Assembly: GCA_963846445.1 (NCBI GenBank)
Contig: CAWJWM010000004.1
Span: 59,879 to 123,878, forward strand
Length of the DNA stretch: 64,000 bases
Source of the DNA: an uncultured Verrucomicrobiae bacterium
GTDB lineage: Bacteria; Verrucomicrobiota; Verrucomicrobiia; Limisphaerales; J093
Direction: 5' to 3'
Shown here: piece after piece, positions 8,248 through 38,953 of the stretch
Layout of the letters: every line of letters begins with the position of its first letter
How positions within the stretch are numbered: the first letter of the stretch is position 1
The notes under the pieces: model-generated
What the model was told of the DNA's origin: nothing
Databases searched by the model: none
The model's input: the letters and a program-made list of their open reading frames with translations, nothing else
Made by a program: the position numbers and the translations under genes

Positions 8248-8514
8248 GTGAAAATGGCGACCTTGAACATCAGCTTGCCGGGACCGATGGAAGCGTTCGT
8301 CCGCGCCCAGTGCGAACGGGACTATGGCAACCTCAGCGAATATTTCCGCACCCTCGTTCGGGAGAAGATGAAGCAGGAGATTGACGAAGACCTCCGCTTT
8401 CTGGAGTCCACGCGGCCCGGCGCCGCGCCGGGTCCCTCGGCCAGCGATGTGGAAGAAGTTCTGGCGCTGCAAAAACAGGTGAGAAAGGGCTTCGCCTGTG
8501 CGCGTGGTGCTTGA
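8248..8514 (+). CDS. ribbon-helix-helix (CopG/ParD-like) antitoxin
   Basis: 88 aa. N-terminal [34 protein letters not shown] is a typical RHH. Overlaps the downstream PIN gene by 17 nt. Confidence 0.75.
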
Positions 8515-8905
8515 CGCCAATGTGATCGCTTCCGGCGTCTGTTGGGACGGCGAGGCCTATCTCTGCCTGGTCAAACTGGCACGGCGACAAGCCTTCGCCT
8601 TTGGCACGGAGGCGACCCTGGCGGAGACGAGCGAGGTGACGACCCGGTTGATCCGACAGAAGCGGCCCGGACACAACGCGGCTGGCCGGCTGACGTGGTA
8701 CTTGAGCCGGGTGCGCATCGTGACCCCGGCGCCCTTGGGCAAACCACGTTCCCGGGACCGGAAGGACGATCCTTACCTCGCCGCTGCTCTCGCCGCCGAA
8801 GCCAAGTGCCTGGTCACGTACGACCACGACCTGCTGGTCCTGGGCAAACCGTTCGGGATCGAAATCGTCAAGCCCGCTGAGTTCTTGAGGCGGCTGCCCG
8901 GATAA
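8498..8905 (+). CDS. PIN-domain toxin (type II TA)
   Basis: 135 aa: [10 protein letters not shown]...[27 protein letters not shown]. The acidic residues are spaced as in the PIN fold. Confidence 0.75.
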
Positions 8906-9275
8906 GAGTGTTTTGTCGGAGGGACAACGATAGGCGCCTTCGCTTCGGGTGTACGGCCAGAGCGCGCCTTGGTGAATCCCGGCGGTGGAGCCGTCGGCCA
9001 AGGCAGACCCGCAGACCCAGGAATTGGTCGTGCTGCACAGGCTGCGCCAGTCACCCACTGGTCCGGCAACCCAGTTGGGCACGAGCCGGTCATTGTGATC
9101 GTCGGCGTACATCTGCCAGGCGAGTTGGAGCTGTTTGAGGTTGTTCGCGCACTGGATCGACTGCGCCGAGCGCTTGGCCTTGCCCAAAGCGGGCAACAGC
9201 AGCGACGCCAGGATCGCGATGATCGCAATGACAACAAGCAACTCGATGAGGGTGAAGGCGGATTTACGAAATTGC
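8906..9275 (-). pseudogene. prepilin-type N-terminal cleavage/methylation-domain protein, probably 3'-truncated; start unclear
   Basis: [48 protein letters not shown]...YRCPSD. The frame then runs antisense through the whole TA pair with no stop. It lacks the C-terminal DGH motif present in the paralogue at 61251-61916. Confidence 0.55.
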
Positions 9276-9516
9276 GGCAGGCGTGTTTGTTGGTGCTTCG
9301 ACCCGCCCTCGTCACGCGACGCCGCGAGCGTTTGGAGCGGTGCTTGAGCACCGCTTTGGCCGGCGGACGCTCCTGACGAACGATCCGCGCCCTCTGGCTG
9401 CTGGACACCCTGCGAATGCGGCGACTCCGCTCCCGCTGTGTCGCCGCACTCCAAACGCTCGCGCGACCTCGTCAGCCCCGGTGTCCAACGGACCCCCAAT
9501 TTCCGTCCGTGAGCGT

Positions 9517-12500
9517 TCATGGGCCTTTGCCTTTCTTCTCCACCGCCTCGATTTCCTTCCACGACGGCGCACGCCAAAAGTGGGCCACACCGGTGAAGGA
9601 GGTAGCCATCACCGTGCTCCCGTCGGGAGAGAAGGCAACGTGGAAGAAGAATTCTCCCTCCCCCTGGAGGGAGAGAATCTCCCTTTGCGTCGCGAGATCC
9701 CACAGCTTGACGGCGTCTTCGGCGCCGGAGCCGCCCGTGGCCAGCCGCCGGCCATCCGGCGAAAAGGCTGCTCCCCACACCGAACCCAAATGCCCACGCA
9801 AGGTCGCGAGTTCCCGGCGCTCGAACACGTCCCAGAGTCCGACATGGCCATCCCAACTCGCTGAGGTCAGCACCCGGCCATCCGGGGAAAAGAGCACGGC
9901 CAGCAATGCTCCGGTGTGGTTCGTGATAGTCGTTTCGTGCTCGCCAGAAGGAAACTCAGAGAGCTTCACTGCGCCGTTAGCGTATCCGGTGGCCAGGAGG
10001 CGATCATCCGGCGAAAGGTCGGCCGACCAGACGCGCGCAGGCTGAGGGCTCGCCAGCGGCACCTCCGCCCAGTCGTTGGTTCGCCAGATCCGCACGCTGA
10101 CTGTTTGGTCATTGTGGGCAGCCCCGGCGAGGAGGCACTTGCCACTGCGAGAAAAACGGAGGAAGCCGAACCACTCGAAAGGGACTTCGAGACTCTTGAG
10201 GAGACGCCGCTCGCTCCAATCCCAGAGGTTGACTTTTCCCGAGGCGTTACCGGCCGCCAGCCATCGGCCATCCGGGGACAGTGCCACGCCCCAATTGTTA
10301 CTGCCCAAGACGGGCAGCCTTTCCGTGAGTCGCACCGCCCTGGCGTCCCAAATCCCGAGCGAACCCTCGCGGTCTGAGGTGATGAAGTGCCGGCCATCGG
10401 GCGTAAAGGCAAAGCCAAACCGGCGAACCACCCTCGGGTCGAGCACCTCGCGTGCGAAACTTCGAGGTGCAAGCACAGTCTGAGAGCCGACCCCGAAGGA
10501 AATCGCCAGAGTCGTGTGGCCAGAAGGCTGGTTGGCCGCACTCAAGTCCCAGTAGCACGCGGCTCCCTCTTGGCATCCGCTGACGAGGGTCTTGCCATCC
10601 GGCAGGAAGGCCAAAGCCATGCCCTCGCGCTCATGGCCCCGCAGACACGCCCGTTCGGCCTGGTCAACCACGTTCCAAATTCGGATCATCCGATCATCGC
10701 CCGCCGAGGCCAGTAAGCGGCCATCGGGCGCGAAAGCTAGAGCCCCTACTTCGCCAGCCTGGTGGACCATTTGCCCTCGTGGTTCTCCAGAACTGGCATC
10801 CCAAAGGCGGATGGTTCTGCCGGCATAGCCGGATCCGGCGGCGAGCAGTTCCGACGTGGGCGAGAAGGCCAGCGCCATGACACCGTCGCCCGTTTGGGTC
10901 TGATTCGTCATCGAAACCGTGGTTTGCGCCCGCCAGTTCAGGATGCGAATCCGCCCATAATCTTCGCCTATCGCCAATCGGCTTCCCTCCGGAGAAAAGG
11001 CCACAACTCCCGCGCCCCCGTGTCGAGGGGGCAGCACAGAAAGGTTGGTCAGGGTGCGGTTGGCGGCCCACTCCACCAACGCGATGGTCCCCTGATTGTC
11101 GAAGGTTGCCATCAAGGTCCCGTCCGGAGAAAACGCCAGGGACCTTACGGGCGAAGGGTGGTTGAGCGTACGGCTGATCTTCTGTGCCTGCACGTCCCAC
11201 ACCTCAACTGCCGGCTTTCCCCGCACATTGCCGATGCTCACGGCCAACAGGTTTCCGGTGGGCGATAGCCGCAGGCTTTCGACGGAGGGGGAAGTCGGCA
11301 GCTCAGCCATCGGCCGTTTGGAGATCAAATTCCACACCACGACCTTGTCACCGCCGGTTTGCGCCGCCATCACTCTCCCATCTTGGGAGATGGCCACCGC
11401 GCCGATGGAGCCGGAATTCGTTTGGAGTCGAACGGACTCGTCGGGCTGGCAGACCTGCCATAGATAGCGCCATTCCCAACCGCGCAGGTCGATTTCGGAT
11501 TTCCTGGCGGGGCGATGGTTGTTCAGCAGGCTGGTCGCGAGCCCAACCTTGTTATCCTGCAGCGCCCGTTGCGCCAGGTTCATGTCCGCGGCATAGGCGT
11601 TCTGCCGGGCGAACAGTTCGTTGTCCTCAGCCCGGAACCGCTGCCTCTCCGCCCGCTGCCATTGCCAGACCACACCGCTGAACCCCAGGACAAACACCAG
11701 GATCAACGCCGCGATCAGACCCGCTCGCACCGGTTGCCGCCGGCACCAGCGCCAGGCTCTCTCCGGTCGGCTGACTGGCCGCGCCAGGATCGGTTCCCCG
11801 CGCAGGAAGCGGCCCAGTTCGTCCGCCAGCGCCTGGGCCGTGGCGTAGCGGCGCGACGGTTCCTTCTCCAGGCACTTCAGACAAATCGTCTCCAGGTCGC
11901 GCGGCACCGTCGGGTTGAGCAGCCGCGGCGAAACCGGCTCGGCGGTCAGCACCTGACTGACGATGACCTCCAACGAGTCCGCCTGGAACGGCGGGCGGGC
12001 CGTCAGGAGGTGGTAGAGGATCCCGCCCAAGGCATAGACGTCGCTGTACCGGCCCACCTTGCCGTGCTTGGCCGTCGCCTGCTCCGGCGGCATGAAGTTG
12101 GGCGAGCCGACCATCTGACCGCTCAGCGTCAGACTGGTCTCGCCCTCCAGGCGCTTGGCCAGGCCGAAATCGGTGATGCGCGGCTGGTCGTTGGCGTCGA
12201 TGAGCACGTTCGACGGTTTGAGGTCGCGGTGCAGGATGCCTTGCTGATGCGCGTAGTGAATCGCCTCGGCAATGGTCTTGAGGTACTGGGCCGCCCGCCG
12301 GGCCGGCAGCGGCTGCGTGCCCCACCAGGGCGGCCAGACTGGGGCCATCCACGAAATCCATCGAGAAGTAGTGCTGGCCGGCGTGGACCCCGACTTCATG
12401 GATCGCGACGATGTTCGGATGGTGCAGCACCGCCGCGGCGGCGGCCTCGGTGCGAAAGCGCTGGACGAACTGCCGGGGTCGCAAACTCGCCGGCGAGAAT

Positions 12501-12803
12501 CATCTTCACCGCCACGAGGCGGTCCAGGCTGACCTGCCGGGCTTTGTACACCACCCCCATGCCGCCGCGGGCGATTTCCTCGACCAATTCGTAGTCGCCA
12601 AAGCGGCGGAGCGGCGTCAGGCCCGGAGTTCCCACATCGCCGGCCGGTGGCGGTTGCGCGACGGGCGAGGCGCTGGCCTCGCTGCCTGGAGGGCCGGGGA
12701 CGTCGAGCCCCAGACCGATCAGGCAATGCGGGCATTGACTGGCAGGCGTGCCTTCCGGCAACTCCCTGCCGCACTCCGGACATGTTGCGTTCGTTTCGCT
12801 CAT
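9517..12803 (-). CDS. Ser/Thr protein kinase with N-terminal zinc ribbon, one TM segment and a C-terminal WD40 array; 2 frameshifts at ~12300-12500
   Basis: [20 protein letters not shown]; [11 protein letters not shown]; VAVKMI; [11 protein letters not shown]; DFGLAK; then about 14 WD40-like repeats (SPDG..LA...D..V.LWD). Confidence 0.85.
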
Positions 12804-12935
12804 ACGCCCAGGTCGTCTGCGCCCGCACTCCAGCTCGCGAGGCCGTCAACGGCCACGCATCGCTTCACTGATCCATGAAGCAATTCCGGCCAGAAGTGAC
12901 GGAATTGTCTTGGCCGCACCGGCGCCGGTCAAAAC

Positions 12936-15037: not shown

Positions 15038-18000
15038 ATGTGCCTCGTGCACGCCCGCGCCCTCTGTTCCGCGCTCCTCTGGCTTGCCCTCTGTCTCGTC
15101 CCGGCCGAGCCGCGCGGCCAATCGTTCTCCCTGTTCCATACAAACGCCGCCTGGCGCTACGCGAAAGGGACCGCCGAAGCCTCGCTTCCCGACCGGGCCG
15201 CCTGGCGTCAGCCGAGTTATTCCGACGCCGCCTGGAGCAGCGGCGCGGCGCCGTTCTTCTACGGTGAATCCTATCTCGCGCCGGGGACGTTGCTGAGCGA
15301 CATGCAGAACCGGTACACCACCCTGTTTCTGCGCCGCTCCTTCGTCATCACCAACGCTTCCGCCATCGAGTTGCTGGAATTGACCGCCGCGTGCGACGAC
15401 GGCTTTTTGGCCTACATCAACGGCAGCCCCGTGGTGTCCGCCAATGCGCCCGAGAGCGAGCCGTTCCACGACGCCACTGCCCCCGCCGCCGCCACCGAGC
15501 CGGTTCCGTTCCTCGGTTATCCCCTGGCGGATCCGTCGGGATTCCTGGTCGCGGGCACGAACGTGCTCGCGGTGCAGGTCTTCAATGTGTCCGCCAGCAG
15601 CAGCGACCTGGTGTTCGATGCGGCGCTGACGGCCACCTTGAAGGAATCGACCGATCCGCGCGTGGTGACGGTCACCCCGTCCCCCGAATCCGCTCTGGCC
15701 CAACTCACGGACATCACTGTCACTTTCAGCCGGGCGGTGGCCGGCGTGGATGCCGCGGACCTCTGGCTGAACGAAACCCCTTGTGCGGCGGTCAGCGGGA
15801 GCGGAACGACCTACACGTTCAGCTTTCCTCGGCCTGCCTGGGGCACGGTCCAGGTCTCATGGGATATGCGGCACGGTATCACCGACCTGGGCCAGCCGCC
15901 TACGGCGTTCAACGCCACCGGCCCGGGGGCCCGCTGGCTCTACGAACTCTACGAGCCGGGCGCCCCTAAACTCGCCGCGCTGAATCCGCCCGCCGAAGCC
16001 ACCGTCCGTCAACTTACTCAAATCGAAGTCTGGTTTGATCGGCCGGTCCAAGGGGTGGACTCGGCGGACCTCCTGATCGACGGCGCGCCCGCCTCGAGCG
16101 CCGCCGGCGCCGCAGCCGGGCCCTACGTGTTCGCGTTTGCGCCGCGCGCCGGAGGTCCGGTATCCATCGCCTGGGCCGCAGCGTGCGGCATTGTGGACCT
16201 TACACCCGAGGCGCGCCCGTTCGAGGGCGGCTCGTGGTCCTATGCGGTCGATCCCGAACTCGCTGTGCCCGATGTCATCATCAACGAGTTCATGGCCGAA
16301 AACGTGAGCGGGCTCAAGGACGAGGAAGGAGACAGTGAAGATTGGATCGAGCTCTACAACCGTGGCAACACGCCCGTGAACCTCGATGGTTGGTCGCTCA
16401 CCGACGACGCGCGCCAGCCCGGTCAATGGGTCTTTCCCGCGGTGTCCCTGCCCGCGAAACGTTATCTGGTCGTGTTTGCCTCGGGCAAAGACCGGCGCCC
16501 CACCGCCGCAGGCGCAACGCTGCACACCAACTTCAAACTCGGCCTCGCGGGCGAATACATCGGCCTCTATAACGGCGAATCCCCACGCCTGGCGGTGAAC
16601 GAAATCGCGCCCGAGTACCCCGAGCAGCGCAACGGCGTGGCATACGGGCGCGACGCGCTCGGCGCATGGCGCTACTGCGCAGCCGCGACGCCAGGCTACG
16701 CCAACAGCCCGAGTTGGATCAACGGCGTGGTCGAGCCTGCCCACTTCAGCGTTCCCCGCGGTTTCTTCGCCCGGCCCTTCAGCCTGTCGCTGGCCACCCC
16801 AACGCCCGGAGCCGCCATTCGCTACACACTGGACGGCAGCGTCCCCAGTCTCACCAACGGGATTCTCTACACGAACGTCATCGGCATCGGCACCACACGC
16901 GTGGTTCGGGCCGCCGCGTTTCGGGCGGATCGGTTGCCCTCGCGAGTCACCACCCATACCTACCTCTACAATCAGTCCGCCATGCGCCGCACCCTGCCTG
17001 CGCTCTCGCTCGTCACGGCCTCGAACCATCTCTACGGCAAGACGGGCATCATGGAGTATAACCCCCGCAACACCCTCAATCACGGAATCGCCTGGGAACG
17101 CCCGGTTTCCGTCGAGTGGCTTGCGCCCGAGGATAACGGGGGCTTCCAGATCGATTGCGGCCTACGCATTCAGGGGGGCGGGTACATCCGGAATCTCTAC
17201 AACTACCGGAGCGGTTCCATTCCCGAAAGCAAGTACTCGTTTCGACTCTACTTTCGGGGCGACTATGGCGAAGGCCGGCTCCGCCAGCCGATCTTCCCCG
17301 AGGTGCCCGCCGACTCGTTCGACACCCTCGTGCTGCGCGCCGGCATGAACGACGCGACCAACCCTTTCCTGCGCGACGAGTTCGCGCGGCGCCTCGAATC
17401 CGATGTCGGTCAGGTCTCCGCCCGCGGCACGTTCGTGAACCTGTTTCTCAACGGCGTCTACAAGGGATACTATAATCCCACCGAACGGATCGACGACGAT
17501 TTCCTCCAGACCTGGCACGGCGGCACCAATCGCTGGGACATCATCGCCATGGGCGGCGAGGTCCGCGAGGGCGACGCCATTGCGTGGAATGCCATGCGCG
17601 CTTACGCCAGCGCCAATAACCTCGCCCTTGCGCCACGATACCTCGAGATCGAACGGCGCCTCGATACAACCAACTTCGTCGAGTATCTCATCCCGCTCAT
17701 CTACGGCGATACCGACGACTGGCCCCACAACAATTGGCGGGCCGCGCGCGAGCGGACAGGCGGAGCCCGCTTCCGCTTCTATGCCTGGGATGCCGAATGG
17801 TCCTTCGGCTATAACAACGAGCCCACACATAACACCATCGCCGGCCAGCTCAGCAACCTCAGCCCGCCCTGGGGCGGCACCGAAATCCAGACGCTCTTCC
17901 TCCGCCTGAAAGCCAGCCCCGAGTTCCGTCTCCTTTTCGCCGATCGCGTGCACCGCCACTTCTTCAACGGCGGCGCGATGACAGACGAACGGCTCAAAGC

Positions 18001-20965
18001 GCGCTACGAATGGCTCAAGGCCATGATCGCCCCCGCCATTTCCGGGTTCAACAATACGATCGGAACAAGCTGGATCCCCTCCCGCCGACGTTACCTCACC
18101 AACCACTTCGCCCTCGCCGGCTTGCTCGCGTCCTCGAATGCGCCCGTCTTCAGCCAGTTTGGCGGCCCAGTCCCGCACGGGTACCGCCTCTCCCTCGCGA
18201 GCGGGGTCGGCACCATCTACTACACCACCAACGAAACCGACCCGCGCGTCCGGTTCACCGGCGCCGTCGCACCCGACGCCATCGCTTACTCCCCAGGAAC
18301 ACCCATCGTCGTCGACCGACCCCTCTTCGTCCGGGCGCGTACCCTCTCGAGCACCAATTGGAGCGCAGTGAGCGAAGCCGCCTTCCAGATCGGCGAATCC
18401 CGCTCCCCGCTCCAGATCACCGAAATCATGTACCACCCGCCCGGCGGCGAACACTACGAGTATATCGAACTCGAAAACACCAGCCCCCTGTCCCTCGACC
18501 TCAGCGGCTTTCACTTCGAAGGCATCGAGTTCCGCTTCCCCGCAGGCACCGTCGTGCCGGGCGGCGCGCGGCTGGTGCTCATCCCCGACGCCAACCCGAC
18601 CGCATTCGCCCTGCGCTACCCCAACGTCACCGTCTTCGGACGGTACGGCGGCAGCCTCTCCAACGGCGGCGAAAGACTCGCCCTCATCGATGGCGCAAAC
18701 CGCACGACCGTGTCCGTCGATTACCAGGACGCCGACGGTTGGCCCCGCGCCGCCGACGGCAGCGGCGCCTCTCTCGAAATCATCAACCCTCGCGGCGATC
18801 CCAATGACCCCGCCAACTGGCGAGCCAGCGCCTCCCCAGGCGGTTCTCCGGGCGCAGCCAACCCACAACCGGCCCCGCCACAGGTCAGACTCAACGAAAT
18901 CGCAGCCGCCCCACCCGTGGCAACCGCGCCCGGCACGCCCACCAACGATTGGTGCGAACTCCACAACGCCGGCCCCACCGACGCCGACCTCACCGGCTGG
19001 AGCCTCAGCAATGGCCGCGCGACCCAACGCCTCGTCTTTCCCCCGCTCACCTTGCCCGCCGGAGATGACCTGTTGATTCTCTGTGACAGCGAGTCCCAGC
19101 CCGCAGGTCTCCACGCCGGCTTCGCCCTGGATCAGAGCGGCGATCGCCTTTTCCTCGCAAACGCCGCTGGACAGCAGGTGGACGCCCTCGGCTTCGGCCC
19201 GCAGGCTGCGGGCTTCACACTCGGACGCGTGGGCGAAGATTCCACCTGGCAGTTGACCATGCCGACGCCCGACGCCCCCAACACCGCCGCCTCGCTGGCA
19301 TCGCCCGCCCGCCTCGTCCTCAACGAATTCCTCGCGAACTCCACGCCCGGCGCAAACGATTGGATCGAATTGTACAATCGCGATCCCCAGCTCCCAGTCG
19401 CCCTCTACGGCCTGTCGCTCGCCATCACCAACGCCCAGTTCCAAATCACCTCGCTGGGCTTCGTCGGGCCCGGCGCCCATGTCGTCCTCTACGCCGATGA
19501 ACAGCCTGGCCCCGATCACCTCGGTTTTCGTTTGCCGGCCGCGGGCAGTTACATCGCCCTCTACGACACGAACCGACTTGTGCTCGATCGTGCCAGTTAC
19601 ACCAACGCCCAGGAAGGCGTCTCGCTGGGGCGCCTGCCCGACGGCCACACCAACCTGGTCGCCTTCAGCCTCTCGCCCAGTCCGGGAACCGCCAACTACC
19701 TCCCCAACGATCGCGGTGTCCTCCTCCATGAGGTCCTGGCACGCAACCTGACCCACCACGCCCCTGCCTCGGGCCGCGTCGCCGACTGGATCGAGCTGTG
19801 CAATCCCACCAGCAACACCGTCGCCTTGTCCGGCATGAGCCTGAGCGTGAACGAACGCCACCCAGGCCAGTGGATCGTTCCGGCAGACGTGTCCCTCGAC
19901 GCAGGAAAGTGCTTGACGGTGTGGTGCGACTCGACACGCCCGGCGTCACTCACAAACGAACCGGAACTCTGCTGCGGCCAGGAGCTGACCGACTCGGGCG
20001 GCGGCGTCTACCTCTTCGACACCGAGGGCCGGCTGGTCGATGGCGTCCTCTACGGCTTCCAGTTGCCAGACCAATCCTTCGGACGGGTCCACCGCAACTG
20101 GACCCTCCTGACCCAACCGACACCGGGCGCAGCCGATGCGGCCCCAGCCGACCTGGGCGATCCGGCCAACGTGCGTCTGAACGAGTGGCTGGCAGACGGC
20201 GACGCCCACGACTGGATCGAGCTCTACAACCTCGACACCCGACCCGTCAACATGGCGGGAATGATCCTCACCGACGATCCCTCTCTCGCCGGCCAAACCA
20301 ACGGCCTCATCGGGCCTTTGACGTTCATCGACGCCCGCGGCTGGGTCCTGTGCCTCGCCGATGGGGAAGTCACGCGCGGACCGGATCACCTCCCGTTCCG
20401 CCTCGATGCACTGGGCGAGACTGTCCGCCTCTACTCGGTCGGCCGTACCCTCGTCGATAACGTCGATCTGCTCGTCCAGTTGCCCGGAGTGGCCGAAGGC
20501 CGATACCCAGATGGCAACACGAACCTCGCCCATTTCCCCTATACCGCCTCCCCGGGACTGGCCAACCGATTGGCGACCGAACCCGATGGCGATCACGACA
20601 CCCTGCCCGACGCCTGGGAGCTGGCTCACGGCCTCAACCCGCTCGCCGCCACCGGCAACGACGGACCGGACGGCGATCCCGACAACGACGGCCTGCCCAA
20701 CCGGATCGAGCGCGATCACGGCTCGAATCCGCTCGCCCAGGACCTTGTGGTGACCGGTATCGCCGTGGCCCCAGAGGGCCTTCGCCTCGCGTTCAATGCC
20801 GTCGTCGGCCAAACCTATGCCGTCGAGCAACGCGACGATTTCGAACACGCCGACTGGCAGCTCCTGACCCATTTGCTCCCTGCGCCCGCCAGCGGCATCG
20901 CCGAGATGGAATTTCCGCTCCCCCAGGACGCCCCCACCCGCTATTACCGCGTGCGCCTCCAGTGA
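15038..20965 (+). CDS. giant secreted CotH-domain protein with multiple lamin-tail (LTD) domains and a thrombospondin-type-3-like Asp-rich region
   Basis: Signal peptide MCLVHARALCSALLWLALCLVPA. CotH core YSFRLYFRGDYGEGRL...NLFLNGVYKGYYNPTERIDDDFL. About 5 LTD units (INEF.A.....DWIELYN.....L.GW.L.D). DGDPDNDGLPN near the C-terminus. Ends YYRVRLQ. Confidence 0.85.
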   Translation: MCLVHARALCSALLWLALCLVPAEPRGQSFSLFHTNAAWRYAKGTAEASLPDRAAWRQPSYSDAAWSSGAAPFFYGESYLAPGTLLSDMQNRYTTLFLRRSFVITNASAIELLELTAACDDGFLAYINGSPVVSANAPESEPFHDATAPAAATEPVPFLGYPLADPSGFLVAGTNVLAVQVFNVSASSSDLVFDAALTATLKESTDPRVVTVTPSPESALAQLTDITVTFSRAVAGVDAADLWLNETPCAAVSGSGTTYTFSFPRPAWGTVQVSWDMRHGITDLGQPPTAFNATGPGARWLYELYEPGAPKLAALNPPAEATVRQLTQIEVWFDRPVQGVDSADLLIDGAPASSAAGAAAGPYVFAFAPRAGGPVSIAWAAACGIVDLTPEARPFEGGSWSYAVDPELAVPDVIINEFMAENVSGLKDEEGDSEDWIELYNRGNTPVNLDGWSLTDDARQPGQWVFPAVSLPAKRYLVVFASGKDRRPTAAGATLHTNFKLGLAGEYIGLYNGESPRLAVNEIAPEYPEQRNGVAYGRDALGAWRYCAAATPGYANSPSWINGVVEPAHFSVPRGFFARPFSLSLATPTPGAAIRYTLDGSVPSLTNGILYTNVIGIGTTRVVRAAAFRADRLPSRVTTHTYLYNQSAMRRTLPALSLVTASNHLYGKTGIMEYNPRNTLNHGIAWERPVSVEWLAPEDNGGFQIDCGLRIQGGGYIRNLYNYRSGSIPESKYSFRLYFRGDYGEGRLRQPIFPEVPADSFDTLVLRAGMNDATNPFLRDEFARRLESDVGQVSARGTFVNLFLNGVYKGYYNPTERIDDDFLQTWHGGTNRWDIIAMGGEVREGDAIAWNAMRAYASANNLALAPRYLEIERRLDTTNFVEYLIPLIYGDTDDWPHNNWRAARERTGGARFRFYAWDAEWSFGYNNEPTHNTIAGQLSNLSPPWGGTEIQTLFLRLKASPEFRLLFADRVHRHFFNGGAMTDERLKARYEWLKAMIAPAISGFNNTIGTSWIPSRRRYLTNHFALAGLLASSNAPVFSQFGGPVPHGYRLSLASGVGTIYYTTNETDPRVRFTGAVAPDAIAYSPGTPIVVDRPLFVRARTLSSTNWSAVSEAAFQIGESRSPLQITEIMYHPPGGEHYEYIELENTSPLSLDLSGFHFEGIEFRFPAGTVVPGGARLVLIPDANPTAFALRYPNVTVFGRYGGSLSNGGERLALIDGANRTTVSVDYQDADGWPRAADGSGASLEIINPRGDPNDPANWRASASPGGSPGAANPQPAPPQVRLNEIAAAPPVATAPGTPTNDWCELHNAGPTDADLTGWSLSNGRATQRLVFPPLTLPAGDDLLILCDSESQPAGLHAGFALDQSGDRLFLANAAGQQVDALGFGPQAAGFTLGRVGEDSTWQLTMPTPDAPNTAASLASPARLVLNEFLANSTPGANDWIELYNRDPQLPVALYGLSLAITNAQFQITSLGFVGPGAHVVLYADEQPGPDHLGFRLPAAGSYIALYDTNRLVLDRASYTNAQEGVSLGRLPDGHTNLVAFSLSPSPGTANYLPNDRGVLLHEVLARNLTHHAPASGRVADWIELCNPTSNTVALSGMSLSVNERHPGQWIVPADVSLDAGKCLTVWCDSTRPASLTNEPELCCGQELTDSGGGVYLFDTEGRLVDGVLYGFQLPDQSFGRVHRNWTLLTQPTPGAADAAPADLGDPANVRLNEWLADGDAHDWIELYNLDTRPVNMAGMILTDDPSLAGQTNGLIGPLTFIDARGWVLCLADGEVTRGPDHLPFRLDALGETVRLYSVGRTLVDNVDLLVQLPGVAEGRYPDGNTNLAHFPYTASPGLANRLATEPDGDHDTLPDAWELAHGLNPLAATGNDGPDGDPDNDGLPNRIERDHGSNPLAQDLVVTGIAVAPEGLRLAFNAVVGQTYAVEQRDDFEHADWQLLTHLLPAPASGIAEMEFPLPQDAPTRYYRVRLQ

Positions 20966-22371: not shown

Positions 22372-24381
22372 TCACCCGCCCCGCCTGGCCACACACACCA
22401 CGTACTCGTGCTTCACCTCGAAACCGGCGCCAGGCGGCTTGCGGCGGATCAGTCCGCTGAGAAAACGCTCGGTGAGCGCTTCCCGACGCTTCGGATCGAG
22501 CGCGTCGTAGAACGCCGTTCCCGCACCCGACTTCAGCAAATGCTCGAGCACTTCAGCCGCCGTCGCATACCGGAACACGATCTCACCCTCACCAAGCGTC
22601 TCGACCTCAAATCCCGCAGACGCCACCATCGTCCGCACCCGGTCCCCGTCGCGCGGAAAATCGAAGGCCACCCGCTTGAGCAATACAGCCGGATCTTCAG
22701 CCACCAACTCACCGAAAATCTCGAGCGGCGCGCGAGGCGAGTTCTCCCGGTGCACGATGAACGCCAGCCGGCCACCCCCGGCCAACGACCGATGCGCAGC
22801 CGCGAAAAACGGAACCAAAGGGATGTACCCCAGCACCCAACTCGAAAACACCAGATCGAACGGTCCCCCCGCCGCAAGCACCGCCAGAGCGTCGCCCACC
22901 TCGAATCGAACGTTCGATCGACCCGCCCCCATCAGCCGCCTCCGGGCGCGCGCCAACATGCCCTCCGACAGGTCCACCGCCAGCACGGTCCCTGCCCGAC
23001 ACGCAAGCTGCCCCGTGGCGTAACCGGTGCCGCACCCCGCCTCGAACACCCTCTCCTTCCCGCTCCACGCCATCCCCCCAATCAGCCGGTCCACTGGCTC
23101 CGCAGCCGCCGTCAGCCAAAATTCGTCGTAGTCACCGTGGACCCGATCGTATGCCGCCCGCAACTCCGACGCCCCTACGTCCGTGCTGCCCGCTCCGTCC
23201 CGAATCTCGAAAAACCGCGGCAAGGCGTGAACGCGCGGCAGACGCCGCTCACAAACCGCTAACGACTCCTCCGGCCCCAAAGGCAGCGCCGTCGACGAAA
23301 GCTGCCCCCCCAGCACCCGACCCACACACCCGGTTCGCGGACGGCAAAAGCAGCGGCCCATGCGCTCGAGTATCCGGTCCAGCGGTTCGCGCGTCATGTT
23401 GCCAAACGACAGCGGCACCAGGTTGCACGGACACACCTCGCCGCTGCCGTCGATGTACAGGTGCGTCAAACCCGCGCCGCAGCCAAACGCCTCCGCCGAC
23501 TCGAGATAGGCAAAACTCGACAGGATCGGCAACGCCCCGTCTCCAGCGACTTCCGCCTGGTATTCGAGAATGCGCCCGCGCTCCGCAGCCGTAAGCTGCA
23601 CCTCGGGGTGGTCCGCAAGTCGCCCGGTCGCGCTCGGCTCGAGAAGGTGGACCTCCAGCGCTCCCGCCGCCCCCGCGAACCGCAGAAAAGGAAGGAAACG
23701 TTCCCGCGGTAGAAACTCCCGAGTCGCCACCGACACAACGTACGGGTAAAGACCCGCCTCCCGCGCCACGCCCAGGGCTCGCAAAGCGGACCGGAACGCA
23801 CCCGCCCGACCCCGCAGACGATCGTGCTCCGCCTCGAACTGCGAATCGAGGCTGATGCCCACGGCGAATACCCCCTGGCGCTTCAATGCGACCGCACGTT
23901 CAGAACTCAATCCCTCCCCGGTGGTGCCAAGAATAACGCAGGAACGCGCGTCAAATGCCGCCACAATCTCCGTCAAGTCGTCCCGCAGCAGAGGTTCGCC
24001 CCCAGTCAGTGTCACCATGACCGCACCCCGATCCTGCAGTTGCGACGCCAACTCGCGCAGCGCCGCCAGCGCCATGTCCTGCTGGCCGCGCCCGGCATTG
24101 TAACAGTGCCAACATCGGAAGGGACACCGATTGGTCACCGCCAACGTCACCGAGTACAAACGTCGTGCCGCCGCCGTGCCCACCCGTCCGAATTCCTCGA
24201 CCAAGTGCTCGAACGCCCCGCTCGGATAGGGCGGGAAATGCGTGTTCACCACAAACCTGTCGCCGAACATCACCACCTTCTCCCTGGCAAAGTAGTCCTT
24301 CAGAAAGGCCGCCACACGCGGATGCAGTTTGGTGAAGGGCGGACGATTCGCAATCCGAACGAAAAACTCGTCACCACGCAT
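22372..24381 (-). CDS. radical SAM (SPASM/twitch-like) enzyme fused to a class I SAM-dependent methyltransferase
   Basis: CPFRCWHC (CxxxCxxC) with TLTGGEPLL. Cys-rich auxiliary region CGAGLTHLYIDGSGEVCPCN...CFCRPRTGC. The C-terminal third has VFEAGCGTGYATGQLA...VLAVDLSEGML...FDLVFSS. Confidence 0.75.
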   Translation of the reverse strand: MRGDEFFVRIANRPPFTKLHPRVAAFLKDYFAREKVVMFGDRFVVNTHFPPYPSGAFEHLVEEFGRVGTAAARRLYSVTLAVTNRCPFRCWHCYNAGRGQQDMALAALRELASQLQDRGAVMVTLTGGEPLLRDDLTEIVAAFDARSCVILGTTGEGLSSERAVALKRQGVFAVGISLDSQFEAEHDRLRGRAGAFRSALRALGVAREAGLYPYVVSVATREFLPRERFLPFLRFAGAAGALEVHLLEPSATGRLADHPEVQLTAAERGRILEYQAEVAGDGALPILSSFAYLESAEAFGCGAGLTHLYIDGSGEVCPCNLVPLSFGNMTREPLDRILERMGRCFCRPRTGCVGRVLGGQLSSTALPLGPEESLAVCERRLPRVHALPRFFEIRDGAGSTDVGASELRAAYDRVHGDYDEFWLTAAAEPVDRLIGGMAWSGKERVFEAGCGTGYATGQLACRAGTVLAVDLSEGMLARARRRLMGAGRSNVRFEVGDALAVLAAGGPFDLVFSSWVLGYIPLVPFFAAAHRSLAGGGRLAFIVHRENSPRAPLEIFGELVAEDPAVLLKRVAFDFPRDGDRVRTMVASAGFEVETLGEGEIVFRYATAAEVLEHLLKSGAGTAFYDALDPKRREALTERFLSGLIRRKPPGAGFEVKHEYVVCVARRGG

Positions 24382-24424
24382 GCTGTGCCTCCTCTCCCAT
24401 AGAATGTAGAGATCCGACCCCAAT

Positions 24425-25546
24425 TCACGGTGTTGCGAATCGGGCAAAGACGATCGTTTCGTATGGACTGCGGTCGCCGCGCTCGTAAAGACATGCCGCC
24501 AGACCGTTCCCAAGGTCCGCCAGATCCGAATAAGCGCTCGGCCCGCTCTCCAAAACCCGGTCTGCAGCCCAACTCCTCCCCTCGTCGCGGCTCACCCGCA
24601 CTGTCAGGTTCACCCGCGCTTTCGTGTCCGCAGGGTTCGAGAACAACAGAACCTCGCCGCACCGCCGGAGACTCGCCTGGCAGATCGGCTCGACCAGCGC
24701 CTCGTCGAATCTCTGATCGCCCCAGGTCGTCCCGGCATCCGCGCTGAAAGCGACCTGGCGGAGTCGCTTGGCCGGATCGTAATTGCGCATGTTGAGCACC
24801 AAACGCCCGTCGCGCAGTTCGGCAACCTGACACTCGTTGACCCGGTCAACAGGCGTCCGACCCCCAAGCCGCCAACTCCGCCCCTGATCGTCCGAGCAGA
24901 TCACGTGAGAATAGTAGCGCTTCGTCCCCGCCTCGATGTGATCGCAGGGGATCACCATCCGTCCTGCCCTCGAACCCCGTTCGAGTTGGATGCCAGCCCC
25001 CGGCCCCGTCGCATACCAGGTCCAGTTGGTCTGCTTCACGTCCTGGGTGATCTCCGCCGCCTTGGACCACGTCAGGCCGTCGTCCCTCGAACAACTGACA
25101 AACACCCGCCGGGTGTCCCGGCTCGTGCCGTCGATGATCTGCGCTTCGCGGTCGTCCCCGCGGTTCCAGGTCATCAACAACCATACGATCCCCGTGCCGC
25201 GGTCCACAACAGGACTCGGATTGCCGCACGTGTGGGCGTCGTCATCCCAGACCGTCTGAGGCGCGCTCCAGGTCGCCCCGTGGTCCGTCGACCGCCTCAT
25301 CAGAAGATCGATGTCGCCGCTGTCGCCCTGCCCCTGTGTTCGGCCCTCACAGAACGCCAGGACGGTTCCCTGGACGGTGACCGCCAGCGCCGGAATGCGA
25401 TAGGTGTGGTACCCCCCCTCGCCACTGGTGAACAACGCCTGTTGCCGGGTCGAGCCGGCGCCCGCACCCGCCAGGGCGTGGACGCCAACGCCCAGCACGG
25501 CCATGACCAGCATGCCGAGCACAGGGACGGTAGGATTCATGCACAT
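24425..25546 (-). CDS. exo-alpha-sialidase (GH33, BNR/Asp-box)
   Basis: Signal peptide; YRIP (FRIP motif); Asp-boxes [40 protein letters not shown]. Confidence 0.85.
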
Positions 25547-34581: not shown

Positions 34582-35259
34582 GTGCTGGATGTCCTGCGGG
34601 CCACCAGTTCGATGGTCACGGCGCTGGCGAACGGGGCTGAGGCGATTGTGCCGGTGGGCACGATTGCGGAGGCGTTAGCATGGAGGGAACGCGACCCGGA
34701 GGTTCTCCTTGCCGGCGAACGCGACGGTGTGCGCATTGCGGCCCGGCTCACCGGTGGCGTGGAGTTCGACGTGGGCAACTCGCCGCGCGAGTTCCTGCCG
34801 GAGCGGGTGAGGGGTCGGAGGATCGTCATGACGACGACCAACGGCACGCGGGCCCTGCAAGCCTGTCGCCGGGCGGCGCACGTCTGGGTGGGCGCGTTTC
34901 TGAATCTGGGAGCGGTCGTTGCGGCGCTCCGGTGTGCCCAGCCCCGCCACGTGTTGGTGGTTTGCAGTGGGACGATCGAGCAGGCGGCATTCGAAGACGC
35001 GCTGGCGGCCGGCGCGCTTTGCGAGCAGATGGAAGGACTCTGCCAGGTGGGCGAGGTGGCCGATTCGGTGCTGATGGCCATCGAGGTGTGGCGTCGGCAC
35101 GCCGCCGATGTGGCGGCGGGGTTAGGATCGGGCCGCAACGGGCGCCGGTTGCTGGGCCGACCCGAACTGCGGGACGACGTGAGGTTCTGCGCCGCGCGCG
35201 ACCGCCATGCCTTTGCTCCCAGGCTCGAGTCGGACGGCGTGGTGCGCTGGTTGAGGTGA
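34582..35259 (+). CDS. comB: 2-phosphosulfolactate phosphatase (ComB) family
   Basis: LDVLRATSSMVTALANGA; AGER.G; VMTTTNGTRAL. Similarity extends upstream (VLYTPAEFSVLPQRDL) to ~34513 with no ATG/GTG, ending at the repeat boundary. Confidence 0.7.
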   Translation: MLDVLRATSSMVTALANGAEAIVPVGTIAEALAWRERDPEVLLAGERDGVRIAARLTGGVEFDVGNSPREFLPERVRGRRIVMTTTNGTRALQACRRAAHVWVGAFLNLGAVVAALRCAQPRHVLVVCSGTIEQAAFEDALAAGALCEQMEGLCQVGEVADSVLMAIEVWRRHAADVAAGLGSGRNGRRLLGRPELRDDVRFCAARDRHAFAPRLESDGVVRWLR

Positions 35260-35322
35260 AGGCGTCGTCACTGCGCGACCACAGACCGTCAGCGACCCGC
35301 CGACGCAGCCGAGGGTCGGCAT

Positions 35323-35589
35323 TCAGGGCTGGACCAGCCTGAAGATCCGCTGGCCATCTTCGGGGACGAACATCATGACATTCGCATCGTCCGTCGCCAC
35401 TGGGGGGGCAGTCTGAGTCCAGATACCCGTCCCGAGAAGAGCTTGTTCCTCCAACTCGAATCCCAATGCAGACCGCGGCCAAGTCACCAACACGGTCCTG
35501 CCCAGGCGCCCGATCTGCAACACCGGTGGCTCGGGCTTCGCCGAGACCGCGCAGAAGTTGTCGGCGCTGAGCGTGTTGGCCACGGCCAT
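35323..35589 (-). CDS. stand-alone copy of the ~60-aa '...W...FYR(V/L)' C-terminal domain
   Basis: 88 aa: ...GRTVLVTWPRSALGFELEEQALLGTGIWTQ...RIFRLVQP. It aligns with the C-termini of the genes at 5360-6827, 6880-8124 and 15038-20965. Confidence 0.45.
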   Translation of the reverse strand: MAVANTLSADNFCAVSAKPEPPVLQIGRLGRTVLVTWPRSALGFELEEQALLGTGIWTQTAPPVATDDANVMMFVPEDGQRIFRLVQP

Positions 35590-35697
35590 CTTTGTGGTCG
35601 AGCCATAGATCCCGACGCGAAGGGGTTGGGAGGCGGACAGGGGCCAGCGATCGTTGCCGGTCTCTCTGTTCTTGGCTTGGTGGGAGGGTACCCCTGC

Positions 35698-36831
35698 TCA
35701 AGGCGCGCTCAAGTTGAAAAAAGAACCGATTCGAGGGCGATTCGAGCTCAGCGCGCTGGTCCGGACGCTCTCCTGACCGATTGATTCCGCGATGCGGCGG
35801 TGGGCGCTCGTGAGGGGCAGGCGGCGAATCTGGCTGAGCGCGCGCCATTTGCCGGCCCAGGCGTGCGGCGGAACGCCGGAGCGCGCCCGGTACACTTCGA
35901 GCCGAATCCGGAACCGGGTGATCGTGTGCCGGATTTCACCCAGGCGTTCGAGTTGGTCCTGGCGCAGGCCGGCGGACTCTGTCAGAGCCGAAACGGCACT
36001 TTGTCCGGGCTGGACGTCGATCTGCGGGAACTCCCACAAGCCGGCGTTGACAACGCCTTCGGGCCGACGGCGGACAAACCAGCGTGCGTCCTGCTCGAAC
36101 AAGAGTGCGGCGCATCGCTTGGGGACGGGCTTACGGCGGGGGGCCAGGCGCGGGATCTGGTCGACGCCTCCCTGGCGCCGGGCGGCGCAGGTGCGTCGGA
36201 GCGGACAGGCGGGGCAGCGCGGGGCGCGCGGGGTGCAGACCGTGGCTCCGAGTTCCATGAGCGCTTCGTTGAGGCGGCCGCAGGCCCGCGGTTCCCGAAG
36301 GCGTGCGGCGCGATCGACCAACTCCTGCGCCCAGTGCCAGAGTTGTGTCTGGGCTGTTTTTGTCCGGACCTCGTCGCGCAGGCCATGCAGCCTGGCCAGG
36401 ACGCGGGTGACGTTGCCGTCGAGCACTGGGGTAGGGAGGTTGAATGCGATGCTGCAGATGGCGCCGGCGGTGTAGCGTCCGATCCCCGGCAGCGCGCGCA
36501 CCTCGGTGAAAGTGCGTGGGAACCGGCTGTCGTGTTGGGCCACAAGGACCTGTGCAGCGCGGCGCAGGTTGTCGGCCCGGCGGTAATAGCCCAGGCCTTC
36601 CCAAAGCCGGTAAACACGCTGGCGCGAGGCAGAGGCGAGCGCGCCCAGGGTGGGCAACTCGCGCATCCATCGGGTGAAGTGTGGAATCACCGCTGCGACC
36701 GTGGTCTGTTGCAGCATGACCTCGGCGACCCAGATGGCGTAAGGATCCCGGGTCCGGCGCCAGGGCAAGTCGCGCGCGGCGGCGGCGAACCAGCGGACCA
36801 GGGATAGGGCGACAGTTGCCGGTCGGGTCAT
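35698..36831 (-). CDS. mutY: A/G-specific adenine glycosylase
   Basis: LPWRRTRDPYAIWVAEVMLQQT; GLGYYRRA.NL; LPGIGRYTAGAI; 4Fe-4S cluster CTPRAPRCPACPLRRTC; C-terminal NUDIX-like domain. Confidence 0.9.
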   Translation of the reverse strand: MTRPATVALSLVRWFAAAARDLPWRRTRDPYAIWVAEVMLQQTTVAAVIPHFTRWMRELPTLGALASASRQRVYRLWEGLGYYRRADNLRRAAQVLVAQHDSRFPRTFTEVRALPGIGRYTAGAICSIAFNLPTPVLDGNVTRVLARLHGLRDEVRTKTAQTQLWHWAQELVDRAARLREPRACGRLNEALMELGATVCTPRAPRCPACPLRRTCAARRQGGVDQIPRLAPRRKPVPKRCAALLFEQDARWFVRRRPEGVVNAGLWEFPQIDVQPGQSAVSALTESAGLRQDQLERLGEIRHTITRFRIRLEVYRARSGVPPHAWAGKWRALSQIRRLPLTSAHRRIAESIGQESVRTSALSSNRPRIGSFFNLSAP

Positions 36832-36841
36832 CGTGCGCTTA

Positions 36842-36909
36842 CCCGCATTTCAGGTGAACTGGGACGGTGACCGGTCAGATGACATCAAGAGTGGGTGAGA
36901 AATGCGGGC
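36842..36909 (+). repeat. 70-nt-class hairpin element H2, flanked by TTA direct repeats
   Basis: CCCGCATTTC...TGACCGGTCA...GAAATGCGGG. TTA at 36839-36841 and at 36910-36912; the second TTA is the complement of the TAA stop of the upstream permease gene. Confidence 0.8.
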
Positions 36910-38660
36910 TTACATCTCGAACTGGCCGACGCGCCGCAGGCTCAGGCGCAGGGGCAGCCAGCCGACCAAGGCGGACAGCAGCGCAAACGCCATCCAACCG
37001 GGCAAGACGCTGGAACTGCTCGGTTCGCCGTATCGCGTCCACGGCGAGCTGACAGCCAGAAGGACAACGGACGCGACAATGTAGAGGAAGCTGGCGACCA
37101 GGCAGAACGTGCCGCCGAAGCCGCTGACGATCTTGCTGGGATTGTCCTCCTTGAGGTTCGGGTAGAGCGCGCCGAGGCCGATGGCGAGCCCGTTCAGGGT
37201 GAACGCCATGACGGCGATGGCGCGCGGTGAGGTAGAGCGTCCGGTCCCACGTCGAGCATCGAGCATCCGGCACGAGAGGACGATCAGGCCCGGCGGTGAG
37301 GCCGAGCGACAGGGCGCTGTGCCGAGCGCGAACTTGGCCAGCAGCAGCCGCGGCAGGCCGAGCGGCGCCATCCCGACGATCCAGAGCCGCTTGCCTTCGA
37401 GGGAGAACTGCGGATAGACGAAACCGCGTCGTCAGCGTGGCCAGGTTCAGCGCGCAGGCGCCGAGGTTCAAGTAGGACACCACGGTGATCCAGAAGGGGC
37501 TGGTCAGTTGCTGGCTGAAGTGGCGGAGGTTGAGGATGTACACCGCCAGCAAGCCGAACAGCACCAGCGTCTGCCCCCATTGGGTCGTGTCCCGCCAGAA
37601 CAGGCGCATGTCCTTCACGATCAGCGGCGCGGATGTCGGCGCGGACGGTCGGGATCCAGGCCAGAGCCGCGCTCGAGCCGGCCCGGTCGCACCGGGCGCG
37701 GCCGGCGGCACGTTCCTGCCAGGCCCGGAACCACGTCCACCGGCCCAGGACGCTGCCGCGGCTCTGGACCATGCGACGCGGCGCCGTAGAACAGGCCTGC
37801 CCATGCGGGTGAACATGAGGCGTGCCGAAGAAGAGCACGTGGCTGAGCAGCACCAGCCCGAAGAACAGCGCCGCCGCCAGCGCGCCTTCGGCCCATTGCT
37901 GGACGCCCGCCGAAAGCCAGTAGCTGGGCAGCAGCGGAAAGATGGCGAAGCGCGTGCGCGCCAGCAGCTTGTCCAGCACCACCAGCACCCGGGTCTCGAG
38001 TTCGTCGTCGGTGACCTGCATCGGGCGCAGCCAGAAGGCCGTCGACTGCCACCAGCGCCGCCGCCGTCACCAGGGCGGTGATCTGGAAGGCCCGGCGGTC
38101 GAGGAACCGGGCCAGTGACGGCCAACCAGCGCCGCCGCCGCCGGCAGCACGATGAACAGCCCAGGAACAGCGAGCGTGCCGGGATAGAAATGCCACGGGA
38201 CACCCGGCTCAGCCCGTAGGCGGCGAGCAGCGGGGCGATCAGAAACAGGAACGCCCACGAGGCCAGCAGCGTGGACTCGATGAACTTCCAGCGAAAGATC
38301 GACCTCGGGCGGCACCGGCAGCGGCAGCAGGAACGCCGTCTCGCGGTTCCGGAACAGGTTCGAGTAGCTGATGACCAGGTTGCTCAGGAGCAGCAAGCAC
38401 GAACAGAAAGGCGAAGAGCAGAAAGAGCATCCGCTCGATCAGGACGGCGCCCAGCCCGGGGAAGCTGCCGGCGAACCGCAGTCCGACTTTGGAAGAGTTT
38501 GAAGGCGAGCGCGGCGTAGCCGACGAGGAAGACCACGATCAGGCCGGTGAGCAGGCGGGACTGCTCGGCGCAGCGCCAGCAGGCGCCGCCAGCCCTGGCG
38601 CAGGTTCACCTGGAGCAGCAGCGCCAGCGGGGCGGGCGTGGCGGGGCGGTGCGTGTTCAT
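36910..38660 (-). CDS. multi-pass ABC-exporter permease-like membrane protein; at least 5 frameshifts
   Basis: Hydrophobic segments are spread over 4 ORF fragments (38439-38675, 38067-38396, 37284-38021, 36910-37371). It lies downstream of an ABC ATPase on the same strand. Family assignment is weak. Confidence 0.5.
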
Positions 38661-38953
38661 GGGAAGCGTTGACATTCAACGATTTAATGCGAATCGGGAA
38701 CATGAACCGAAGTTACCTGCTCCTAATCGTAATCGTAATCGTAATCCGCTGTCGCCGATTAAGATTAAGATTAGGATTAGGACCACCTGCCGTGCTCATG
38801 GGAAGCACCTGTTCCTTGTCAAACTGCTCAGTGAACATGAACCGTGCACTTTGCCCCTCACCCGTCCCGCAAAGCGGGACACCCTCTCCCCCGCTCCGAG
38901 CGGGGGAGAGGGACGGGGTGAGTGGGCACGGTTCATGGAGGGCAAGCGCCTGC
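38661..38953. repeat. module F repeat cluster splitting the ABC ATPase and permease genes; includes an AT-rich hexamer microsatellite at 38722-38782
   Basis: GCGTTGACATTCAA, CACCTGTTCC..AACTGCTCAGTG..CATGAACC and the CCCCTCACCC...GGGAGAGGGACGGGGTGAG hairpin are all shared with 59640-59955. Confidence 0.75.

Follow-up and report, generated by a model that had tools for sequence, protein, structure and literature searches.

An undescribed FN3-superfamily domain without a G strand at the C-terminus of diverse, predicted extracellular proteins

Four protein tails encoded in the stretch of Verrucomicrobiota DNA analysed here (64,000 nucleotides, referred to below as the window) are copies of one domain family, and this family is a real, so far unnamed and undescribed variant of the FN3 superfamily. 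The domain is a beta-sandwich of about 65 residues that has no G strand; it is not a new fold. It lies at the C-termini of otherwise unrelated proteins, and we consider it most likely, with a probability of about 0.55, that it serves as a structural, stalk or attachment module on exported proteins. The original prediction had likened the tails to a sorting or anchoring tag: the domain itself is confirmed, and its use as a sorting tag is possible.

The window has a GC content of 65%. Its MutY protein shares 72% identity with the MutY of an uncultured Verrucomicrobiota MAG, followed by matches that come mostly from Verrucomicrobiia / subdivision 3. All eight peptides that had been quoted for the tails were found in the translated sequence, namely at 6651-6824, 7924-8121 and 20777-20962 on the forward strand and at 35326-35496 on the reverse strand. 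The first copy of the domain (6660-6827, forward strand; partial orthologue P0115) forms the C-terminus of the ORF 5625-6827, which ends with QFFRLRQAP. Its host gene (5360-6827, forward strand) had been described as one gene, but no single frame is open throughout: a shift of 1 nt near 5668-5673 separates the frame of the signal peptide, starting with the ATG at 5360, from the body ORF 5625-6827, whose 400-aa product has no Pfam match. This gene is either a pseudogene or the result of an assembly error. The second copy (7888-8124, forward strand) occupies the C-terminus, i.e. residues 338-414, of a Kelch beta-propeller protein (6880-8124, forward strand; Pfam Kelch_1, E 7.7e-47) and ends with RRFYRVVEAQ. 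The third copy (20741-20965, forward strand) is the C-terminus, ending with TRYYRVRLQ, of a giant CotH/LTD protein of about 1975 aa (15038-20965, forward strand), which contains a signal peptide, six lamin-tail domains, a CotH kinase-like domain and Ig-like domains, and in which bacterial TSP3 repeats (Pfam TSP3_bac, residues 1881-1900) precede the domain. The ATG at 15038 is the probable start of this protein. The Kelch and the CotH/LTD genes are both intact, and both encode hydrophobic N-terminal signal regions. The fourth copy (about 35329-35535, reverse strand) lies in an 88-aa ORF (35323-35589, reverse strand) that consists of a 21-residue leader and a single copy of the domain. It had been claimed that the tails always sit at the extreme C-terminus of signal-peptide proteins and that they end with the motif (F/Y)(F/Y)R(V/L). 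Both statements hold for three of the four copies (in one of them the signal peptide is joined to the body only via the frameshift), but the 88-aa ORF ends with I-F-R-L, and no signal peptide or hydrophobic N-terminal region was found in it.

The pairwise identity among the four copies is just 24-32%, and leave-one-out HMMs built from three copies each are weak (E 0.009-0.09 for two of the copies, the other two being missed), so that the four window copies by themselves do not prove homology. A word-indexed database search with the alignment of the four sequences returned only the 88-aa ORF itself, and the same type of search with 8 seeds returned almost solely the tails of BspA-LRR proteins, mostly fragmentary gene calls of 62-135 aa; an HMM of this BspA-LRR tail subfamily alone fails to match the window copies. 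The HMM that had been proposed for the window copies did work when it was built from outside members. This external HMM contains 67 outside sequences and no window sequence, the members having been collected from related loci (L004, L005, L016 and L019) and by searching 1.84 billion representative proteins exhaustively with a profile. Scanned against 830 six-frame segments of the window, it matches exactly the four flagged copies, with E values of 1.6e-6 (first copy), 1.4e-15 (Kelch protein), 8.9e-14 (CotH/LTD protein) and 8.7e-6 (88-aa ORF), whereas the next best segment has an E value of 1.1; thus no fifth copy was detected in the window by this HMM. In addition, the strict motif [FY][FY]R[VL] was observed three times within 10 residues of a stop codon in the window, as compared to about 0.44 expected occurrences. 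The low identity and the weak three-copy HMMs could have indicated a likeness by chance, or by composition in a genome of 65% GC. This reading is refuted by the result of the external-only HMM and has next to no probability left, given also that homologues number in the thousands and that the structure models are both confident and concordant.

The fold of the domain can be read from profile comparisons as well as from models. The family profile also matches arrays that are called fn3 by Pfam (P0167, 4e-83; P0151, 6e-40), and hhalign aligns the family to Pfam-verified fn3 repeats with a probability of 96.5% (E 1e-9, 68 columns). In this alignment the h-h-h-W pattern is paired with FN3 strand B, the segment Y.vE with strand C and the central W with C', and the RFYRv segment of the family falls on the F-strand YYYRV of the fn3 repeats, while the last 16 or so columns of the fn3 template, i.e. 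the place of the FG loop and the G strand, have no counterpart in the domain. In the family alignments, W and R vary little or not at all and the Y/F positions are likewise conserved; all of these align with their FN3 equivalents. The conserved FN3 core comprises the B-strand Trp, the C-strand Tyr/Phe, the C' Trp, and the F-strand tyrosine corner with its Arg. A separate signal motif common to the whole family was not found, the shared conserved positions being those of the FN3 core. On the other hand, the Pfam fn3 model (PF00041) gives no match to the four window copies at E<=1, and it matches 2 out of 72 family members, at E>=0.02. A profile search against PDB sequences found the Fn3-like domain 3mpc over near full length (E 5.5e-4) and also the CtXyl5A Fn3 module and FN3con; the strongest single match was a discoidin domain, 2rv9 (E 5.5e-5), which is partial (profile columns 13-66). 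A discoidin origin is less supported than an FN3 origin, the matches being partial only.

The AlphaFold prediction that had been suggested gave a confident FN3-like sandwich in both proteins that were modelled. The AF2 model of the 88-aa ORF has a pLDDT of 84.7 overall and above 90 from residue 21 on, and that of the full-length Kelch protein has a pLDDT of 91.5 and a pTM of 0.86, with the strands of the tail at residues 338-345, 349-355, 361-367, 392-398 and 407-412. Both models show the tail as a sandwich built from strands A, B, C, E and F plus a short C', with only 2-5 residues of chain left after strand F; there is no G strand, in contrast to the seven-strand A-B-C-C'-E-F-G sandwich of FN3. 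The 3-5 residues that remain after strand F in terminal copies leave physically no room for a G strand. Based on the profile alignment and the models, the (F/Y)(F/Y)R(V/L) motif is the tyrosine-corner F strand of FN3. Foldseek searches against the PDB ranked cytokine-receptor FN3 domains and Ig domains first (probability up to 1.0, TM 0.55, 88-residue query); no match reached E<=1e-3, so this comparison supports the fold class only, at E>=0.06.

In agreement with the original statement that no described family can be named for the tails, no model of Pfam (2025) or NCBIfam (2026) covers the domain in the window proteins, in 18 representative full-length members or in 72 isolated domain sequences, and no description of the domain was found in the literature. 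The family is large: the profile search returned 17,781 clusters (50% identity) at E<=1e-3 and 2,420 at E<=1e-10, counts that are upper bounds as the profile also catches genuine FN3 repeats. As for its distribution, a panel of mutY-anchored loci contained four domain matches in 281 kb of Verrucomicrobiota DNA and none in 284 kb of Planctomycetota DNA plus 503 kb from other phyla (788 kb), and the NCBI-named members that were examined are all from Verrucomicrobiae or Verrucomicrobiota MAGs, under names that reflect N-terminal domains only. On this limited taxonomic evidence the family appears to be enriched in Verrucomicrobiota. Tails of this kind probably also occur in Pedosphaera or Limisphaera-type strains of subdivision 3.

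The bias of the domain towards the C-terminus is very strong. Among the top 150 proteins, ranked by summed score (a ranking that favours multi-copy proteins), all 21 single-copy proteins end with the domain (<=6 residues), and 100 of the 129 proteins with 2-17 copies end <=6 residues from a copy; the 29 exceptions are for the most part genuine fn3 arrays, in which the G strand is present. The chain ends three residues past the motif in 69 proteins and four residues past it in 26 (95 out of 150). The domain is present in 104 of the 120 closest homologues of the Kelch protein, at the extreme C-terminus in 103 of them, and it is terminal in all four matches from other Verrucomicrobiota loci. The passengers are diverse, as had been claimed for the four hosts: besides the Kelch and CotH/LTD proteins they include BspA-type LRR, GH25, cadherin-like/Big_9, Calx-beta and DUF11 proteins across the family. 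We also note that a protein of locus L005 resembles, by eye, a phosphodiesterase/phosphatase-type enzyme. The expected co-occurrence with signal peptides was borne out, in as much as a crude heuristic detected a hydrophobic N-terminal region in 58-71% of the members starting with M, versus 17% of control ORFs. Judging from their signal peptides and passenger types, the members are probably extracellular.

We propose that surface or secreted proteins exported via Sec carry the domain as their last module, be it alone or as the final copy of a Pro-linked tandem array. The domain would work as a non-catalytic module that caps the C-terminus; repeated copies might act as a stalk, and the domain may keep its passenger on or close to the cell envelope, or in contact with a partner. 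It has to be added that generic FN3 spacers are usually internal, and that the near-absolute rule by which nothing follows the domain is not explained by a structural module alone.

This rule is one of the features that would fit a dedicated sorting or anchoring signal, the terminal copy of which would be recognised by a putative outer-membrane export or attachment machinery of Verrucomicrobiota. Such a signal would be an analogue of the Ig-like T9SS C-terminal domain (CTD). The edge of the F strand, exposed by the missing G strand, could be complemented by a beta strand coming from a receptor. The terminal position, which hardly varies and leaves 3-4 residues after the motif, the unrelated passengers with their signal peptides, the lineage restriction seen in the small locus panel and the purely Verrucomicrobiota origin of the NCBI-named members are all in keeping with such a signal, and so is the finding that the same C-terminal slot is filled by a T9SS CTD in three of the Kelch homologues. 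On the other hand, LamG or dockerin modules fill this slot in other Kelch homologues, the positions conserved throughout the family are those of the FN3 core, and no profile similarity to the T9SS CTD was detected. Among the genes of the 64-kb window that were scanned there is no candidate for a sorting machinery, including the T9SS machinery (PorK/L/M/N, SprA, PorU/V).

The tandem arrays cut both ways in this question. They contain up to 17 copies joined by Pro-rich (PPPP) linkers, and some arrays belong to the 'WP..s.GF.LE' subtype, like the 88-aa ORF itself, whereas known sorting tags are single in a protein. Within the arrays, however, the terminal copies are set apart. In 39 of 57 arrays the terminal copy diverges more from the internal copies than these do from one another (on average 37% identity to the internal copies versus 53% among the internal copies), and in 50 of the 57 proteins it is closer to the terminal than to the internal copies of other proteins. 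Terminal copies thus appear to be a partly distinct subtype, which hints at a position-specific function, as would be expected of a tag. A further candidate signal, the C-terminal Pro found in 82 out of 121 proteins, was rejected, as it is probably an ordinary domain boundary; several internal copies also have a Pro a few residues past the motif. The original prediction had named a generic Ig/FN3 fold free of positional bias, or internal occurrences of the domain, as findings that would speak against a tag. The fold is indeed that of FN3 and internal copies do occur in arrays, but the C-terminal bias is strong. Taken together, we regard a dedicated sorting or anchoring signal as possible but unlikely, and a cleavable signal recognised by a machinery as less likely than a structural or attachment module.

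The Kelch proteins allow the conservation of the domain to be compared with that of its passenger. In the Kelch orthologues the identity is 55% in the domain, 63% in the propeller and 30% in the signal peptide, and columns conserved at >=90% make up 25% of the domain and 26% of the propeller, which shows that the domain is under purifying selection in this subfamily. These figures also bear on the idea that the domain is an export or folding helper, one that keeps the passenger export-competent or bound to a chaperone until the membrane is crossed and is then removed. There is a precedent for such a role in the C-terminal FnIII domain of the Xanthomonas cellobiosidase CbsA (PMC9190976), and the members of the present family are likewise signal-peptide proteins in which the domain comes last. 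Yet the domain is nearly as conserved as the catalytic propeller, many-copy arrays would not be expected of a helper, the Kelch model (pTM 0.86) would fit a domain that is fixed in place on the propeller, and there is no conserved cleavage site. We therefore consider the helper role improbable.

The 88-aa ORF was originally presented as a stand-alone occurrence of the domain. Its frame is indeed present, but most likely it is the orphaned 3' tail of a gene, still in coding shape, rather than a dedicated stand-alone protein. It takes up the greater part of the 438 nt that separate mutY (35698-36831, reverse strand), which lies directly upstream of it, from a convergent ComB-like gene (34582-35259, forward strand). 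A functional small protein, e.g. a free FN3-like subunit, would be in keeping with the GC content at the three codon positions (0.62/0.48/0.80), which is like that of the real genes of the window, with the confident AF2 fold and with the prediction by gene callers; the ORF is called as a gene on the JGI contig L001. The related strain L001 keeps the frame intact, with two synonymous changes and one conservative change from V to I. However, the two strains share 98-100% identity over the entire segment 35280-37100, as opposed to 73-93% in the flanking DNA, so that the conservation of the ORF is uninformative as to selection. The synteny with L001 is lost 55 nt past the stop codon of the ORF, and in the closest genome, L003, the ORF is absent downstream of mutY. 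A promoter-like site was looked for and none was found, and the missing signal peptide sets the ORF apart from the single-copy domains in longer proteins, all of which (29 out of 29) end proteins of the exported type. Nor do database relatives help: the 'stand-alone' P0017 (62 aa) proved, when its DNA was read, to be a miscall, namely the end of a longer LRR gene with a frameshift, and many other short relatives come from contigs of less than 2 kb. With P0017 explained in this way, we rejected the idea that stand-alone proteins are common in the family. A read-through fusion with MutY, with the ORF in frame with the mutY stop, was also rejected, as a 1-nt deletion in L001 breaks the frame relation. 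On balance a functional stand-alone protein seems rather unlikely to us, even though the orphaned tail could still be expressed, as the gene-like GC pattern and the few strain differences suggest.

Whatever its role, the domain makes up the tails of thousands of exported proteins (up to about 18,000 clusters at 50% identity) that are at present left unannotated. Verrucomicrobiota are common in soil, water and the gut, and the ways in which their many large surface proteins are displayed or released are poorly understood. A definition of the family would improve annotation and provide a sequence handle by which the surface and secreted proteome of the phylum could be predicted. If the domain is a structural cap only, it is still a clear natural case of a stable FN3 sandwich minus its last strand. 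If the terminal copy is an anchoring or export element, it would represent a new route of protein display and a portable tag for engineering. One may speculate that the G-strand-less cap is the recognition or attachment element of an undescribed surface-display pathway of Verrucomicrobiota, in which the terminal F-strand edge would be completed in trans by a strand of an envelope or outer-membrane receptor, or of another cargo. Although this idea is speculative and probably incorrect, it would, if true, provide a tether for hundreds of different exported proteins per genome, and an element with the function of the T9SS CTD that arose separately, out of FN3.

It is instructive to compare the domain with known C-terminal and extracellular modules. 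The closest relative is the fn3 domain (PF00041), especially bacterial repeats of the type '...LsW...tgY.vErS.dG..W..v...t.y.dtgL...t.YyYRV.A.N..G.S', with which it has the core positions in common. Both are beta-sandwiches that form tandem arrays on extracellular proteins. There are also differences. Firstly, the domain has about 65 residues as opposed to about 85-90 in fn3. Secondly, it has neither FG loop nor G strand, and the chain ends, or a linker begins, from 3-5 residues past strand F. Thirdly, nothing comes after it in the protein, and its NCBI-named and locus-panel members are all from Verrucomicrobiota. The F5/8 type C domains (discoidin, CBM32) have a segment motif in common with the domain ('v.l.W....Y.vqvS.d...W..v'), but the match ends before the FYRL strand, Foldseek returns no discoidin for the model, and any one of the discoidin Pfam models matches at most 6 out of 72 members (F5_F8_type_C_2), always at E>=0.007. 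Moreover, discoidin domains are jelly rolls of 130-150 residues. For the speculative display pathway one may also look at the chaperone-usher pilins, in which an incomplete Ig fold that lacks its C-terminal G strand is completed by a donor strand from a partner, with dedicated assembly genes. The present domain lacks the G strand, and neither a donor strand nor a partner or assembly genes were found for it.

Among the known sorting signals, those of the PEP-CTERM / exosortase or sortase type consist of a short motif, a hydrophobic transmembrane helix and a basic cluster. A tag of this type was rejected for the present domain: the tails FFRLRQAP, FYRVVEAQ, YYRVRLQ and IFRLVQP end right after a beta strand, they contain no hydrophobic helix, and they have no NCBIfam match. 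The T9SS CTD of Bacteroidota (Por_Secre_tail PF18962 / TIGR04183) bears more similarities, in as much as it stands at the very end of signal-peptide proteins whose passengers are diverse and is a small Ig-like beta-sandwich with a short 'YFYRl' strand motif. To our knowledge the T9SS machinery is confined to the FCB group. The T9SS CTD is present as one tag per cargo, unlike the domain with its 2-17 copies in 129 of the top 150 proteins, and its final strand is absent from the domain. A kinship of the two was rejected, as PF18962 and TIGR04183 do not match the domain in Pfam and NCBIfam searches and hhalign gave a probability of 3.6%, with 11 columns aligned, for the domain against the three T9SS CTDs from the Kelch homologues. 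Still, the likeness to a sorting tag that was originally drawn is not without grounds: the three Kelch homologues carry the T9SS CTD at the same position, which makes the analogy a reasonable one, and the terminal bias is real, while the T9SS profile score, the tails that are unlike PEP-CTERM, the arrays and the window genes scanned for a machinery speak against it. The T9SS CTD has seven strands in an Ig-like fold and undergoes strand swaps at the C-terminus (PMC4804311), a feature that likewise favours the analogy.

The second system to be compared is CbsA of Xanthomonas oryzae, a cellobiosidase whose C-terminal FnIII domain is required for SecB binding and for efficient transport across the inner membrane, and is missing from the secreted enzyme (PMC9190976). 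In both cases an FN3 domain is the last one on an exported protein (in CbsA via Sec/T2SS), and in CbsA its role is in export and not in catalysis. [quoted passage not shown] These two precedents, the T9SS CTD (PMC4804311) and CbsA (PMC9190976), illustrate that C-terminal sandwiches of the Ig/FN3 type can serve export.

The neighbourhood of the orphan 88-aa ORF, which holds one copy of the FN3-like cap (35323-35589, minus strand), was compared over positions 35280-38700 of the window with L001, a contig of a related strain (JGI 3300010353). Identity to L001 is 98-100% across 35280-37100, i.e. mutY (35698-36831, minus strand) and the 88-aa ORF, it drops to mostly 73-93% directly upstream of this block, and all similarity ends 55 nt past the stop codon of the ORF. 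This uneven identity, together with the point at which similarity ends, points to a recombination mosaic or a rearrangement breakpoint at the 3' side of the ORF. In the same comparison, the C-terminal residues of MutY are altered by a 1-nt indel in a T-run (377 vs 373 aa). A Verrucomicrobia subdivision 3 MAG (L005) carries a gene in the same place relative to mutY as the orphan ORF: positions 11186-12454, immediately downstream of mutY, encode a 422-aa signal-peptide protein with a C-terminal FN3-like cap, which by eye looks like a phosphodiesterase- or phosphatase-type enzyme. The shared position could be a coincidence, or it could be a clue to what was lost.

Disrupted frames were found at two further loci of the family. 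The 62-aa family "protein" P0017, present on 8 contigs (e.g. L083, L085 and L086), corresponds to the last part of a longer frame with a signal peptide of its own; since a second frame holds BspA-LRR fragments, the locus is a frameshifted or decaying LRR gene, and mutS is its neighbour. In the first domain-bearing gene of the window (5360-6827), the exon-like signal-peptide start (ATG at 5360) is out of frame with the 400-aa body (ORF 5625-6827), for which Pfam and NCBIfam gave no match. Within 5360-5830, the frame junction resembles a 1-nt indel at around 5668-5673 (...ACGGCGCTATCAGGAG...). Either the gene is a pseudogene or the assembly is in error here.

The CotH protein (15038-20965, plus strand) contains six lamin-tail domains and, immediately before its terminal cap, a bacterial TSP3 (calcium-binding) repeat; at the 3' end of its gene (20840-20965), the stop codon is overlapped by the next gene, mnmE, which starts at 20962. 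The Kelch gene (6880-8124, plus strand) lies tail to tail with a minus-strand ORF (8333-9856) in which a prepilin-type N-terminal methylation motif (N_methyl) occupies residues 197-220, so that the real start is probably internal. Other minus-strand genes encode a 1110-aa protein with a Ser/Thr protein kinase domain and two WD40 beta-propellers (9517-12849), a 713-aa protein in which a radical SAM/SPASM domain is fused to a class I methyltransferase domain (22372-24513) and, adjoining the latter, a BNR sialidase-like protein (24425-25546).

The cap is not confined to single terminal copies. P0121, P0122, P0168 and similar database proteins contain a separate internal-repeat subtype with two conserved cysteines (motif "tNLCLsW ... 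YCv.LPtPYRFFRV"), arranged in arrays of 5-10 copies with PPPP linkers between them; the arrays end with another, Cys-free terminal subtype. Among the homologues of the Kelch protein, P0312, P0366 and P0376 (about 700 aa) carry the T9SS C-terminal domain (PF18962) in the place of the cap, and further homologues have Laminin_G_3 or dockerin there. The Kelch proteins are thus one passenger family whose C-terminal modules are swapped.
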